Shown one piece after another: positions 1 through 13,315 of a DNA stretch of 13,934 nt. Origin of the DNA: Actinia tenebrosa (Eukaryota); the NCBI RefSeq assembly GCF_009602425.1, contig NW_022258259.1, positions 265,204 through 279,137 on the forward strand, given 5' to 3'. Each line of letters begins with the position of its first letter. The first letter of the stretch is position 1. The position numbers were made by a program, and so were the translations under genes. Under the pieces are notes generated by a model. That model ran no database searches and was not told the origin of the DNA. It was given only the letters and a program-made list of their open reading frames with translations.

Positions 1-115
1 GGGGGGGGATGTGAGGATGGGGTGGAGGACGAGATGATGGGGGTGGGGGAGGAGATGATGGGGTGGAGGATAAGAGGATGGGTCGTGGGATGAGAGGGTG
101 TAGGATGTGAGGAAC
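1..115 (+). repeat. G-rich minisatellite, about five 20-bp units of the form GATGGGGTGGAGGAYRAGAG, with many GGG/GGGG runs
   Basis: Direct reading shows repeated gatgatgggg and tggaggat motifs. The G runs on the plus strand can form G-quadruplexes. Confidence 0.7.
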
Positions 116-3368: not shown

Positions 3369-3540
3369 GATTTTTGTTGAGGGAGAAAAACAAGAGAACC
3401 TGGAGAAAAACCCTTGAAGGAATCCTGAGAGAACCAACAAACCACTCAAGTCACATACTACACCGAGCCAGGTGGGGCTCCAACCCAGGTCTCATTGGCG
3501 AGAGGCGTGCAAACTTACCATTACAGCACCAGTGCTTCCC
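3369..3540 (-). mobile_element. tRNA-derived SINE (family B), minus orientation, copy 1
   Basis: Reverse complement reads as a tRNA-like head followed by a conserved central block (gagaacctggagaaaaaccc..gagagaaccaacaaac on the plus strand). Shared with copies at 6014-6158 and 7955-8110. Confidence 0.65.
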
Positions 3541-4878: not shown

Positions 4879-5036
4879 ATAGAGGCTTTGCACCGTGATG
4901 GCAGCCATGACAGGGGGCACAACAATGGAGTCGTACTCCCCTGGGAAACAGAATTCTTTCTGATGTAAATTTGATTAGACCAGATTCAATTGTTCCTGCC
5001 TCCTGTCATGGCTGTGCTATCACATGATTGGTGCAA
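4879..5036. mobile_element. Palindromic MITE, family P, copy 1
   Basis: Long TIRs (gcaccgtgatggcagccatgacagg ... cctgtcatggctgtgctatcacatgattggtgc). The internal 80 bp is about 90% identical to the copy at 9578-9745. Confidence 0.7.
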
Positions 5037-5270: not shown

Positions 5271-5448
5271 ACCCTGACCTTGTTCCAGAGTAAAATCGCT
5301 GAAATTCATACCCTGTTCCAGAGCAAGACTGCTGAAAATCATACCCTGTTCCGGTATTGCGAAAATAGATACCCTGTTCCAGAGCGAGTGCCATTTTATA
5401 TACCTTGTTCCAGAGTAGAATCCCTGAAAACCATACCCTGTTTGGCCG
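5271..5448. repeat. Minisatellite of about six units of 28-33 bp (ATACCCTGTTCCAGAG-N8-10-CTGAAAATC)
   Basis: Directly visible periodic recurrence of ataccctgttccagag. It accounts for the repetitive minus-strand ORFs at 5115-5466. Confidence 0.8.
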
Positions 5449-5532
5449 CATGTACCCATATAGCAATGTATTTTAGTAGGCTATCTATCTAGTTCATAAA
5501 GGTCTTATGGCTTTATATATGGTATCTTTCAG

Positions 5533-6505: not shown

Positions 6506-6546
<41 letters not shown>

Positions 6547-6560
6547 TAGATAGATAGATA
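6506..6560. repeat. (CAGA)n(TAGA)n microsatellite; on the minus strand this is a (CTAT)n(CTGT)n tail abutting the LINE 3' end
   Basis: Directly visible as agacagacagaca...gatagatagatag. Confidence 0.9.
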
Positions 6561-7415
6561 GATAGATTCCTTTATTTAAACACGGACGTCTCATCAGTAA
6601 AAATACATAAATATAAAAATGCAAACAAAATTAAATACAATGAATTACAAAAACAAATTTAAATAACTGCTTTCCATGAGTGCCGTGTGAAGCTTAGTCC
6701 TGGTTCGTAGAAGAAATACTTTTTGCAACCAGACTTGAAGGCCTTTAGGGACTTGGCCGTTCTTAATTCGGTCGGCAATTTAAACCATTCCATAAGGAGG
6801 CTCCTGAATAGCTAAAACTTTTTTTCAAAGAATTTGTTTGTGGCAACGGGAGGGCAAGCTTTCCAACAGTGTCCCTCAGAGAATAACTATTAATGCTAGA
6901 ACTATTTACAATTTTCGCATAAAGATAACCAGGAGCTAAGTTATGTACTGATTTATAGACCATACCAGTAGCTAAACGCATTTGTCATTCGGTCTCGAGT
7001 TTAGGCCTTCAAAATGCTAGAGTACAAACACTATAAGTGTGTAACATAAATACCACTAAATACTGCTAAATTATGCTAATCCTGTTGTTTTCTATTGTTT
7101 AATTTTTAGTGTTTGCACTCTATCACCATCAGAATCATAACTTGAATGTTTAACGATACGAGCAGCACGATTCTGAAGCTTTTGAAGCTTGGTGGCCGAA
7201 GACTTGCCATAGTTTCCCCAAACCTCATTACAATAATCAAAATTAGGTTGAATCAGGGAATTCTAAATAATTATTAATTTTCGAAAGGAACAAAACAACA
7301 AGGAAAGCTTTAAAGCCCCAATACTGGAAGCAATTTTTTTGTAAAGCTTGTCAATTTGTTCCTTCCAAGAAAGGTTTTGATCAATGATCACACCTAAGGC
7401 CTTAGTAGAAGGTAC
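6561..7415 (-). mobile_element. 5'-truncated non-LTR retrotransposon fragment (CR1/L2/RTE-type reverse transcriptase C-terminal region plus 3' UTR)
   Basis: Minus-strand translation gives LGVIIDQNLSWKEQIDKLYKKIASSIGALK, then IQPNFDYCNEVWGN..KLQKLQNRAARIV, then RDTVGKLALPLPQTNSLKKSFSYSGASLWNGLN. These fit the conserved CR1/L2-type C-terminal motifs (L.YC..VW, VQ.RA.R.I, SF..R....WNSLP). Stops and frameshifts interrupt it. It ends in a microsatellite tail. Confidence 0.75.
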
Positions 7416-7575: not shown

Positions 7576-7694
7576 GTACCTTGTGGAATTTAGCCTGGAT
7601 GGAGAGTATGTACGCAAGCGTCATATTGATTTTGCTCTTATGTCCAACCTTGAACAAGAAGATGAACCATTAGCACTGACACAACCTGATGAAG
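7576..7694 (+). CDS. PARP4: PARP4-like exon, end of the catalytic domain plus linker: (R)YLVEFSLDGEYVRKRHIDFALMSNLEQEDEPLALTQPDE(D)
   Basis: Acceptor ttttgttttcttttattAG at 7574-7575. RMRYLVEFSL corresponds to PARP1 LKYLLKLKF. The donor is placed at GAAG|GTACTA (7695) because only this phase-1 end joins in frame to the next, VIT-encoding exon. The frame also stays open to a TAA at 7874-7876, a possible read-through. Confidence 0.65.
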
Positions 7695-7954
7695 GTACTA
7701 CAGATGAAAATTTCCTTCGTGCGTTTTACTGCTTTGAAAGATTTTCACTTTTATTGCCTGTACTTTTGCCACAACCTGTTACATTAACCAATGGTTATAA
7801 TGGTTATACTCCTCATGGTTATAAATTGCGCGGCAGGATTATTGCTGCCATTCTGAATTTCAATTTATCACTATAAAAAATACCAAAACTCTGATTTTTC
7901 ACCCCTAAGAGGTATGTCGAGCATACCCGATACTTTTAGCCTGGGGTATCTTCC

Positions 7955-8110
7955 CATTTGTGGAGGAAGGAAAACCGGAGAACCTGGAAAAAAAACCTCG
8001 AAGCACAGGAGAGAACCAACAAACAACTTTACTCACATATGACCCCGAGCTTGGTGGGGATCGAACGCGGGTCGCATGATGAGAGGCGAGCGAACTTACC
8101 GCTACACCGC
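7955..8110 (-). mobile_element. tRNA-derived SINE (family B), copy 3, best-preserved head
   Basis: Reverse complement GCGGTGTAGCGGTAAGTTCGCTCGCC...GCGACCCGCGTTCGATCCCCACC carries an A box (TAGCGGTAAG) and a B box (GTTCGATCC). The central block matches copies 1 and 2. Confidence 0.7.
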
Positions 8111-8272
8111 TTTAGTAAATATTATGCTTATACTTCAAATCTAGATATGTCAGTCATCTTTCGTTTTCTTTTCTCACCTTCCTATTTGTTTGTTTGTTTG
8201 TTTGACTATCGCTTTCAACTGTTTGTTTTTTGTTCATTTATCATTCATTAATTCATTCCATTTTTCAAACAG

Positions 8273-8409
8273 ACATAGATCTGTCTGATGTGACATCAAT
8301 AGTAGACCCTCTGTCTAAAGTAAAGGCAGGTCTTAAGGGCAGTGGTGATCAACCAGTACCTCTACAAGCTGTCCATGTTAGAGCAAAACTACTGGATCTT
8401 GTTGCACAG
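8273..8409 (+). CDS. PARP4: PARP4-like exon, start of VIT domain: (D)IDLSDVTSIVDPLSKVKAGLKGSGDQPVPLQAVHVRAKLLDLVAQ
   Basis: Acceptor ccatttttcaaacAG at 8271-8272 and donor CAG|GTAACA at 8410. The last 30 nt of this exon and its donor are copied three times in tandem in the downstream intron. Confidence 0.75.
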
Positions 8410-8650
8410 GTAACAATCTAACTATCCCTTGTGGGGGAGTGAGGGGTGTGTGCACATTAGAGCAAAACTACTGGATCTTGTTGCACAGGTAACAATCTAA
8501 CTATCCCTTGTGGGGGAGGGAGGGGTTTGTGCACATTAGAGCAAAACAACTGGATCTTGTTGCACAGGTAACAATCTAACTATCCCTTGTGGGGGAGGGA
8601 GGGGTTTGTGCACATTAGAGCAAAACTACGATCTTGTGGTTCCGGTAACA
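8380..8650 (+). repeat. Tandem array of a 79-bp unit (about 3.4 copies) that duplicates the last 30 nt of exon 11 plus its GTAACA donor and about 49 nt of intron
   Basis: Units at 8380-8458, 8459-8537, 8538-8616 and a partial one from 8617 are each agagcaaaactactggatcttgttgcacaggtaacaatctaactatcccttgtgggggag[tg]gaggggt[gt]tgtgcacatt, differing by only a few substitutions. Confidence 0.9.
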
Positions 8651-8746
8651 AATTATAACCATTTGATTCACCGAAAGTGGATATCCTGTCTGACAACTTA
8701 ATTTCACTTTTTCATCATCTTTCTCACAATTCTTTTGCTATCCAAG

Positions 8747-8831
8747 GTGGTTGTATTACAATCCTACAAGAACAACAGTACTCTTTCTATTGAAGCAAAA
8801 TATGTCTTCCCCTTGGACGATAAGGCTGCAG
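8747..8831 (+). CDS. PARP4: PARP4-like exon, VIT domain: VVVLQSYKNNSTLSIEAKYVFPLDDKAA(V)
   Basis: Acceptor ttcttttgctatccaAG at 8745-8746 and donor GCAG|GTATTT at 8832. EAKYVFPLD is the conserved VIT-domain signature shared with the VIT domains of PARP4 and ITIH proteins. Confidence 0.85.
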
Positions 8832-9152: not shown

Positions 9153-9286
9153 TATGCGGTTTTGAGGCCTTTATTAATGGTAAACACATTATTGGTGAAG
9201 TCAAAGAAAAAGAACAGGCCCGCAAGGAATACCGGGAAGCCATCAGCCAGGGTCATGGGGCCTACTTGATGGACGAAGAAACACCG
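9153..9286 (+). CDS. PARP4: PARP4-like exon, VIT domain: (V)CGFEAFINGKHIIGEVKEKEQARKEYREAISQGHGAYLMDEETP
   Basis: Acceptor ccttttcatcAG at 9151-9152 and donor CCG|GTGAGG at 9287. Very strong resemblance to the vertebrate PARP4 VIT segment AVCGFEAFINGKHIVGE...QGHGAYLM, recalled from memory. Confidence 0.85.
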
Positions 9287-9577
9287 GTGAGGAGACTGAA
9301 TTGTACCCAATGACATTTTGACACTAGAACCCCTTTGCCTAGACGTGCAATTTATCATGTTTACTAAGAAAGTAAATGTTTGTTTTCTGCGAACATATAG
9401 CAATATTTCGTGAATACACTTTTGGAAGACTAGCAGACACTGTATTAAGGACGTTCATGTGCATTGTTCGCGCGCATCCTGTCTACGCATGAATGAGTGA
9501 GCGCGCGCTCATCGTAATGACGTCATTCCAATGTTTTGATAAGCAAAATAACATGAAAACGTCTTTAATCCCTTAAA

Positions 9578-9745
9578 GAGGCTTTACAACATCACGTGAT
9601 GGCAGCCATGACAGGAGGCACAACAATGGAGTCGTACTCCCCTGTGAAACAGAATTCTTTCTCATGTAAATCAGATTAGACCAGATTCAATTGTTTCTAC
9701 CTCCTGTCATGGCTGCCATCACGTGATGGTGCAGAGCCTCTATAG
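9578..9745. mobile_element. Palindromic MITE, family P, copy 2, better-preserved 40-bp TIRs
   Basis: Left TIR agaggctttacaacatcacgtgatggcagccatgacaggagg and right TIR cctcctgtcatggctgccatcacgtgatggtgcagagcctct. Same internal sequence as copy 1. Confidence 0.75.
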
Positions 9746-11205: not shown

Positions 11206-11370
11206 GACGTGTTTACCGTCAGTGTTGGCAATCTCCCTCCCAATGCAAGTGTCCTGATCAAAATCACCCACATAGTAGAGCTGGCCGTGGAGGGTGAAAA
11301 CGTCTCCTTCAGTCTACCAGGCAGCGTGGCACCATGGAAACGGAGTCAGGCTCTTGATAGCATCACACAG
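11206..11370 (+). CDS. PARP4: PARP4-like exon, VIT domain: DVFTVSVGNLPPNASVLIKITHIVELAVEGENVSFSLPGSVAPWKRSQALDSITQ
   Basis: Acceptor ccttttcgctgcaAG at 11204-11205 and donor CAG|GTACCT at 11371. 55 codons in phase 0. PDVFTVSVGNLPP...VLIKIT is a hallmark VIT stretch of PARP4. Confidence 0.85.
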
Positions 11371-13084: not shown

Positions 13085-13315
13085 TTTCTATCATCTTTAT
13101 TTGTACAACTGTTCCCCGATGGAAGGCATGAGTACCCTACATTTCATATTCCGGCTTGGTTACCAGCGTGGTTGGTCCTTGTGGTGTTGTAGTTAACACA
13201 TCGGACTAGAATACCGAAGACGTGGGTTTGATTCCCGCCAAGGGCATTTGATATTTTTCTCTTATTCTCTCTATTTCATTGCACACACCGAACGCATAAT
13301 TTATTACTACTATAA
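13085..13315 (+). mobile_element. tRNA-derived SINE (family A), full-length-like copy
   Basis: About 90% identical to the 1303-1605 element across the leader, the tRNA-like region (gggtttgattcccgcc) and the body through atttattactactata. Starts within about 10 bp of the exon 16 donor. Confidence 0.75.

Follow-up and report, generated by a model that had tools for sequence, protein, structure and literature searches.

Where the end of an exon is tandemly repeated together with its 5' splice site, several identical donors come to compete for one acceptor, and the question is which of them is used. Two experimental rules give conflicting answers for identical 5' splice sites. In natural minisatellites the most upstream site is chosen, while in engineered duplications it is the site nearest the 3' splice site. 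The locus described here, within a 13.9-kb stretch of DNA (the window) from a non-mammalian metazoan, poses this question at an exon-intron boundary of a gene resembling PARP4. An earlier note, made from the letters of the window, had proposed that the repeat creates two extra decoy donors and is an uncommon route to alternative or aberrant splicing.

The word uncommon was an overstatement. In several genes the first monomer of a minisatellite spans the exon-intron boundary, and the donor is reiterated within the intron (PMC1557585). IVS7 of F7 holds 5-9 copies of a 37-bp unit; the 4-8 identical pseudo-donors are functional yet remain silent, and splicing is confined to the most upstream donor. 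Only the authentic donor is used in LMNB2 (a 100-bp unit, 10-15 repeats) and in PDGF intron 4 (81 bp, 16-18 repeats). In intron 2 of IFI6 (6-16), which has 25 pseudo-sites, the two nearest the exon are constitutively used besides the authentic site, and in CBS IVS13, with 15-20 repeats, the two exon-nearest pseudo-sites are in constitutive use as well (all PMC1557585). Moreover, a genome-wide survey of human paralogues found boundary-straddling tandem repeats that are able to change splicing (De Grassi and Ciccarelli, 2009, PMC2812944). The opposite behavior is known from model substrates. When two identical strong 5' splice sites are at least 45 nt apart, the downstream, intron-proximal site takes almost all of the splicing (Hodson et al., 2012, PMC3413131).

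The PARP4-like gene and its exon junction

Based on homology and domain order, the gene on the + strand of the window is PARP4-like, that is, a vault PARP. A protein search with the concatenated open exon-like segments returned PARP4 from many animals as the top named matches, with best identities of 58-67%. In the spliced product, Pfam recognizes PARP_reg, PARP, VIT and VIT_2 (PF02877, PF00644, PF08487, PF13757). The PARP regulatory and catalytic domains are followed by the VIT domain, which is the order that marks PARP4; the assignment is made from the domains encoded in the window, and the N-terminal BRCT, the vWA and the C-terminal MVP-interaction domains fall outside its 13.9 kb.

The exons were placed by tblastn of homologues and include those at 7576-7694, 8273-8409, 8747-8831, 9153-9286 and 11206-11370, among others. 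The exon at 8273-8409 (+ strand) encodes DIDLSDVTSIVDPLSKVKAGLKGSGDQPVPLQAVHVRAKLLDLVAQ and was delimited by tblastn of the homologues P0001, P0002 and P0003, by its splice-site context and by Pfam. Among the exons that homology supports in the window it is the ninth; since the gene's 5' end lies outside, the number 11 given to it in the earlier note is provisional. The linker that follows the PARP catalytic domain and the first part of the VIT domain are both encoded in it. The next exon, at 8747-8831 (+ strand), encodes VVVLQSYKNNSTLSIEAKYVFPLDDKAA of the VIT domain, as judged by tblastn, splice context and Pfam. Between the two lies a phase 0 intron (8410-8746, + strand) that ends in an AG at 8745-8746, preceded by a pyrimidine-rich tract. 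The acceptor at 8746 that had been read from the letters is therefore correct, the following exon beginning at 8747.

Joining 8409 to 8747 gives LDLVAQ|VVVLQSY (the bar marks the junction), as in homologues, which read LDLAAQ|V(V/I)V(L/F)Q(A/S)Y (LDLAAQVVVLQAY) and have no insertion at the junction. Because the homologues lack an insertion here, the 8409 to 8747 join is considered productive, and the first copy of the repeat holds the true exon end and donor (D1; the donors of the following copies are D2 to D4). The product spliced from D1 is fully open. In addition, the downstream VIT exons in the window are all open and are 58-86% identical to P0001 and P0002. With its VIT exons open and conserved, the gene looks functional, and this requires the use of D1.

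The intron itself is, judging by its position, ancient. An orthologous intron with identical position and phase is found in Solemya velum (L003, donor GAG|GTATGT) and Trichoplax adhaerens (L004, GAG|GTTTGA) and is common to placozoan and mollusc. Each of these junctions has one donor and no repeat. Gain of the intron by tandem duplication of an exon segment containing AGGT was considered and rejected, since its position and phase are ancient and the acceptor at 8746 lies outside the repeat.

The searches also brought up many PARP4-like VIT loci from one metagenome organism (L006-L017, on WLWD01000565.1, WLWD01000407.1, WLWD01000815.1 and WLWD01001269.1), with two loci per contig on several of the contigs. 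None of them has an intron at the LDLAAR|VVV position. These observations suggest a tandemly amplified, intron-poor family.

Structure and age of the repeat array

Tandem Repeats Finder (TRF) reports a tandem repeat at 8378-8651 (+ strand) with a period of 79, 3.5 copies, 94% matches and a score of 485. In 40 dinucleotide-preserving shuffles of the window, the maximum score for any repeat with a period of at least 20 was 60. This result bears out the claim of a 79-bp tandem unit that includes the end of an exon along with its 5' splice site. Within the unit, 30-32 nt derive from the exon and 47-49 nt from the intron. Copy 1 (8378-8456, + strand), delimited by TRF and the in-register copies, spans the exon-intron boundary: the authentic donor is preceded by the final 32 nt of the exon, and the copy reaches 47 nt into the intron. 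Copies 2 (8457-8535) and 3 (8536-8614), on the same strand, are wholly intronic. Their donors are D2 (motif 8486-8494, GT 8489) and D3 (motif 8565-8573, GT 8568), respectively. Pairwise alignment extends the array by a partial copy 4 (8615 to about 8665, + strand), which is older and decayed and has the donor D4 (CCG|GTAACA, GT 8645).

Copies 1 and 2 differ by two substitutions (97.5% identity), copies 2 and 3 by one (98.7%) and copies 1 and 3 by three (96.2%). The three substitutions are distinct, and homopolymer-type indels are absent from copies 1-3. In the former exon part of copy 3, one substitution changes CTA to CAA and is non-synonymous (Leu to Gln). The earlier description of 3.4 copies with at least 95% identity holds for copies 1-3, at 96-99%, but not for the last 0.5 copy or so. 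Copy 4 has lost 2 nt, which shifts the frame, and carries GGTTCC in place of TGCACA; its intronic part is rich in indels, and the exact blocks that it has in common with the unit are 15, 8 and 8 nt long.

Because copy 4 is decayed while copies 1-3 retain 96-99% identity, the array is, on this evidence, of at least two ages, an old duplication having been followed by one or two recent re-duplications. The term recent, which had been applied to the whole duplication, is appropriate for copies 2 and 3 only; copy 4 is older and had been overlooked. In the mechanism proposed here, the 79-bp piece that was copied comprises about 32 nt of the VIT-domain exon end, the 5' splice site and about 47 nt of intron. 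Slippage or unequal exchange would have added head-to-tail copies of it to the intron in two or more stages. The first would be the old duplication that left the decayed copy 4, and one or two later re-duplications would have given rise to copies 2 and 3. Copy 1 would have remained the real exon end with its productive donor, and the remaining units would be intronic.

The 8 nt directly 5' of the repeat (8370-8377, TGTCCATG) resemble the final 8 nt of each unit (TGTGCACA, 8449-8456 in copy 1) at 5 of the 8 positions. As a result of this likeness, copies 2 and 3 translate as VHIRAKLLDLVAQ, compared with VHVRAKLLDLVAQ in the exon. The similarity may be the remnant of a longer original duplicated segment, or it may be microhomology. 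No further copies of the unit were found elsewhere in the 13.9-kb window. A satellite borne by a transposable element was ruled out as the source, since the unit opens with 32 nt of the gene's own conserved coding sequence (RAKLLDLVAQ) and the window holds no other copy.

The differences among the copies also bear on the possibility, mentioned in the earlier note, that the array is an assembly artefact. The triplication would then have been made or miscounted by the assembler, and the true copy number would be fewer or more. Short tandem arrays are prone to copy-number error, and no assembly or reads of the same species were found in the searches made, namely a search of proteins with the translated splice product (58-67% identity at best), a search for exact matches to three ORFs of the window next to the repeat and a 25-nt exact scan of metagenome contigs. 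However, the copies are not identical. They differ by three distinct substitutions and not by indels of the homopolymer type, and the much more diverged copy 4 shows that one duplication or more must be genuine and old, and points to a stepwise history of the array. The array, at 274 nt, is also short compared with long reads. Finally, independent duplicates of the exon end in two contigs of another lineage (L019 and L021, described below) indicate that this type of event is real at this junction. An assembly error is on these grounds quite improbable.

The window contains several other repeats. Dispersed + strand repeats at 1461-1648 and 13127-13314 (also 1301-1392) have tRNA-like heads and are 89-91% identical. 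An Rfam scan of the window gave only two tRNA-like matches, at 1509-1580 (30.6 bits) and 13175-13246 (53.3 bits), and the latter is called tRNA-Ser(AGA) by ARAGORN. These tRNA-headed repeats are probably tRNA-derived SINEs in introns and not tRNA genes. A second dispersed family, with 80% identity, is found at 3427-3495 and 8009-8077; the copy at about 7914-8110, in the intron that directly precedes the exon at 8273-8409, looks tRNA-related by eye, on the minus strand. A 121-nt repeat with 94% identity (4894-5014 and 9595-9715) overlaps 50-nt inverted arms (9574-9623 and 9695-9744), and short inverted-repeat pairs that are up to 97% complementary occur at 10711-10744/10893-10926 and 9859-9924/9984-10049. 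Both the 121-nt repeat and the inverted pairs look like MITE-type elements in introns. The remaining repeats are a G-rich tandem repeat of 20-21 nt at the edge of the window (1-102), a run of 22 C between inverted arms (2808-2829), a family of 33-nt repeats in a catalytic-domain intron (5277-5452) and (AGAC)15 at 6508-6566.

Donor choice and the fate of alternative transcripts

The motif CAGGTAACA starts at 8407, 8486 and 8565, with its GT at 8410, 8489 and 8568, and the three donors have equal scores. The authentic, productive donor D1 (CAG|GTAACA, 8407-8415, + strand) is the first of these. The two extra intact donors described previously are present as D2 and D3; the enhancer sequences that the earlier note placed in the 30 nt of exonic context before them are an assumption. 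D1 agrees with the consensus at 7 of its 9 positions and can form 7 contiguous pairs with U1, with a duplex energy of -9.3 kcal/mol. This is mid-range for the gene, as the ten other homology-supported donors in the window range from -5.6 to -10.3 kcal/mol. D4 is weaker, with a U1 duplex of -5.7 kcal/mol and a log-odds score of 5.4 compared with 7.6 for D1, both scores being approximate, like the position weights behind them. The weakest donor is thus that of copy 4, the oldest in the window's array. With a divergence of about 1.3% per site and copy, 18 donor positions would be expected to escape change in about 80% of cases, so that the intactness of D2 and D3 says nothing about selection.

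The intron is 337 nt long when measured from D1 and would be 258, 179 or 102 nt long from D2, D3 or D4. Use of D2, D3 or D4 would add 79, 158 or 235 nt, respectively, to the exon. The earlier note predicted that splicing from the extra donors would include an in-frame TAA, and this stop is found at 8419-8421 (+ strand), at the end of an ORF at 8230-8421. It is met upon intron retention or upon use of D2-D4; in translation, the alternative products all read GTA ACA ATC TAA and end in ...LDLVAQVTI. Pfam agrees with the predicted truncation after the catalytic domain: the stop falls beyond that PARP domain, where the VIT domain has only just begun, about 20 residues in. In the extra-donor products the new junction lies at least 67 nt past the stop, with many others after it. 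By an established rule, a stop well upstream of later exon junctions leads to nonsense-mediated decay (NMD). Given the distance of at least 67 nt and the many later junctions, NMD is expected for the extra-donor products.

Two coding interpretations of the copies were rejected. If copies 2-4 contributed coding sequence or pseudo-exons, splicing from TTAG|AG to CAG|GT would insert 26 or 28 nt and shift the frame, and a coding role is also opposed by the Leu-to-Gln change of copy 3 and the 2-nt deletion of copy 4. Tandem alternative donors of the GYNGYN type are 3 nt apart and in-frame, whereas the spacing of 79 nt here is not divisible by 3, and all alternatives run into the stop.

RNA structure was likewise rejected as a means of concealing the extra donors. 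A hairpin is predicted at each of the donors in copies 1-3 (8394-8424, 8473-8503 and 8552-8582, + strand), with 7 bp formed by UUGUUGC and GUAACAA, the loop ACAG and an energy of -6.5 kcal/mol. It would pair intron positions +1 to +7 and is lost in the decayed copy 4 (-1.2 kcal/mol). Since the hairpin is identical in copies 1-3, it cannot discriminate among them, and the RNA fold of 8340-8760 has no excess structure relative to shuffles (z = 0.32).

The sequences between the donors may be more informative. A listing of G-runs on the + strand identified tracts at 8433-8446 in copy 1 (GGGGGAGTGAGGGG) and at 8512-8525 and 8591-8604 in copies 2 and 3 (GGGGGAGGGAGGGG). These tracts sit between successive donors, about 23-37 nt past each donor, and the middle run is broken in copy 1. 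G triplets are known as intronic elements that help to define splice sites (PMC1779574). Sites for hnRNP H/F enhance splicing when they are intronic and silence it when they are exonic (PMC4176321). All of the tracts are downstream of D1, and one or two of them would fall inside the extended exon if D2 or D3 were used. Based on this vertebrate work, the G-run tracts probably reinforce the choice of D1 because they are intronic for D1, yet exonic if D2 or D3 is used. They would enhance splicing downstream of D1 and would silence it within an exon extended to D2 or D3.

By its architecture, the locus belongs to the class of boundary-spanning repeats that has already been described. As in F7 exon 7/IVS7, a head-to-tail unit of roughly 10-100 bp is present (period 79, 3.5 copies, a number that is low for a minisatellite), and the first monomer contains the 3' end of the exon and the authentic 5' splice site, with 8409 fixed by homology. 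Both arrays have copy 1 over the boundary, identical pseudo-donors at fixed spacing, a monomer with G-rich sequence and a premature stop from most pseudo-sites (Borensztajn et al., 2006, PMC1557585). The dimensions differ: the F7 unit has 37 bp with 4 nt of exon and occurs in 5-9 copies, compared with 79 bp, 32 nt of exon and three intact copies plus one decayed copy here. In F7, moreover, the copy number varies and the silence of the pseudo-sites is experimental, whereas at this locus their silence is argued by analogy. In IFI6, CBS, LMNB2 and PDGF the donor is also reiterated by an array that starts in the exon. The 79-bp unit is similar in size to those of PDGF (81 bp) and LMNB2 (100 bp), but these four arrays contain 10-26 copies as opposed to 3.5.

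Other systems are less close. In human segmental-duplication genes, tandem repeats also straddle exon-intron boundaries (PMC2812944; Zhuo et al., 2007, cited there). Those cases concern young paralogues, with newly formed introns or coding repeats that vary, unlike the ancient intron with intronic copies only at this locus. The engineered globin and adenovirus substrates share identical 5' splice sites more than 45 nt apart and one 3' splice site (PMC3413131). These substrates are artificial, carry consensus-strength CAG|GUAAGU sites and splice downstream, and they provide a competing prediction instead of a family to which the locus could belong.

Starting from the observed repeat, exon boundary, donor identity, stop and lineage-specific origin, it seems fairly likely that this is a young, stepwise-grown repeat at the 5' end of an ancient intron, in which splicing starts from D1 and the other copies, silent or minor sites that lead to NMD, are on their way to the decay already seen in copy 4 and in the L019 and L021 duplicates. 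The choice of D1 and the role of the G-runs are, by precedent, the most likely arrangement. For the acceptor at 8746, the spliceosome would choose the donor that comes first downstream of the exon's own 3' splice site. Little or no splicing would start from the identical donors at 8489 and 8568, and NMD would remove the resulting products with the TAA at 8419-8421. Since the downstream copies are silent or minor in the precedents, aberrant splicing is not the default expectation. Alternative or aberrant splicing from D2 or D3, as the earlier note proposed, would be a possible outcome but less than the most likely one. The precedents are all mammalian, while the locus is from a non-mammalian metazoan, and this counts against the explanation.

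Alternatively, the extra donors may be substantially used. U1 would then bind all of the copies, and the site nearest the 3' splice site would win. The result would be a hypomorphic and possibly polymorphic allele, with much of the transcript output carrying the stop and either being lost to NMD or giving a protein with the BRCT and PARP domains only. In line with this reading, loss of PARP4 is tolerated in mice, where the gene is non-essential. In addition, D2 and D3 are identical to D1 over the 79-nt context and have the same mid-range strength (-9.3 kcal/mol), and the first two pseudo-sites are used in IFI6 and CBS (PMC1557585). The model substrates with duplicated sites splice downstream (PMC3413131) and for donors 79 nt apart make the prediction opposite to use of D1. 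However, those substrates carry CAG|GUAAGU (PMC3413131), and the donors here are below consensus strength. Natural repeats with this architecture use the upstream site wholly or mainly. Furthermore, the downstream exons are without decay, and the gene has evidently stayed intact alongside the older extra donor of copy 4. Substantial use of the extra donors consequently appears unlikely, although it deserves some weight.

Comparison with relatives and implications

The comparison with relatives that the earlier note recommended indicates that the array is lineage-specific. A scan of metagenome contigs provided two closer relatives, L025 and L022, whose exons match those of the window at about 80% of nucleotides. 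Their junctions have the single donors CAG|GTACAG and CAG|GTAAAA, respectively, and the internal duplicate is absent. With a single donor in both, the array is specific to the lineage of the window, and Solemya and Trichoplax also have a single donor. A conserved unproductive-splicing (AS-NMD) element was rejected for the same reason, as one donor and no repeat are present in L025, L022, L003 and L004.

Two contigs of another lineage carry duplicates of the exon end in the same intron, L021 representing the sister lineage of L019. In L019 (JAAUYA010223746.1; 93-192, 266-303, 453-516), the last 93 nt of the exon and 7 nt of the intron were copied 173 nt downstream. This duplicate was later split by a 151-nt insertion, and its donor GT has become GA. 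In L021 (JAAUXW010234380.1; 153-208, 298-353), a 56-nt copy of the exon end with 73% identity lies 145 nt downstream, and its donor part is missing. The duplicates carry the exon states of their own species (alignment A1) and would represent either separate duplications or copies that have been converted. Judging from these alignments, the exon end has been duplicated at this junction in at least two lineages, and the older duplicates have no working donor.

When the L019 exon is compared with its duplicate, 10 of the 11 differing codons are synonymous (GCC to GCT was counted by eye). This bias is not expected of a freely decaying, neutral intronic copy.

The near-absence of non-synonymous differences in L019, together with duplication of the exon end into the intron in at least two lineages (that of the window and that of L019 and L021), would be consistent with a selected regulatory element. 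It might serve as an unproductive-splicing switch or as a U1-recruiting platform that tunes PARP4 or gives a catalytic isoform independent of the vault. Set against this, the repeat is absent from L025, L022, Solemya and Trichoplax, donors have been lost in the older duplicates, copy 3 has a non-synonymous change and copy 4 a frameshift, and RNA structure is not in excess (z = 0.32). Selection for such an element is very improbable indeed. A related proposal is that the extra donors are used and act as a copy-number-dependent dial on PARP4 output, and that duplication recurs at this junction (in the window, L019 and L021) because it is favoured. This is improbable as well. If it were true, each added unit would divert more transcripts to the NMD-sensitive stop form, or to a PARP-only protein without the vault-binding half.

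In conclusion, the locus provides a natural, non-mammalian test case for the conflict between the two rules for identical 5' splice sites. Its donors are of moderate strength and 79 nt apart, and the in-frame stop is a built-in read-out. Otherwise, it is a small intronic structural variant whose significance is mainly that of a caution for gene annotation and for splice-site predictors.
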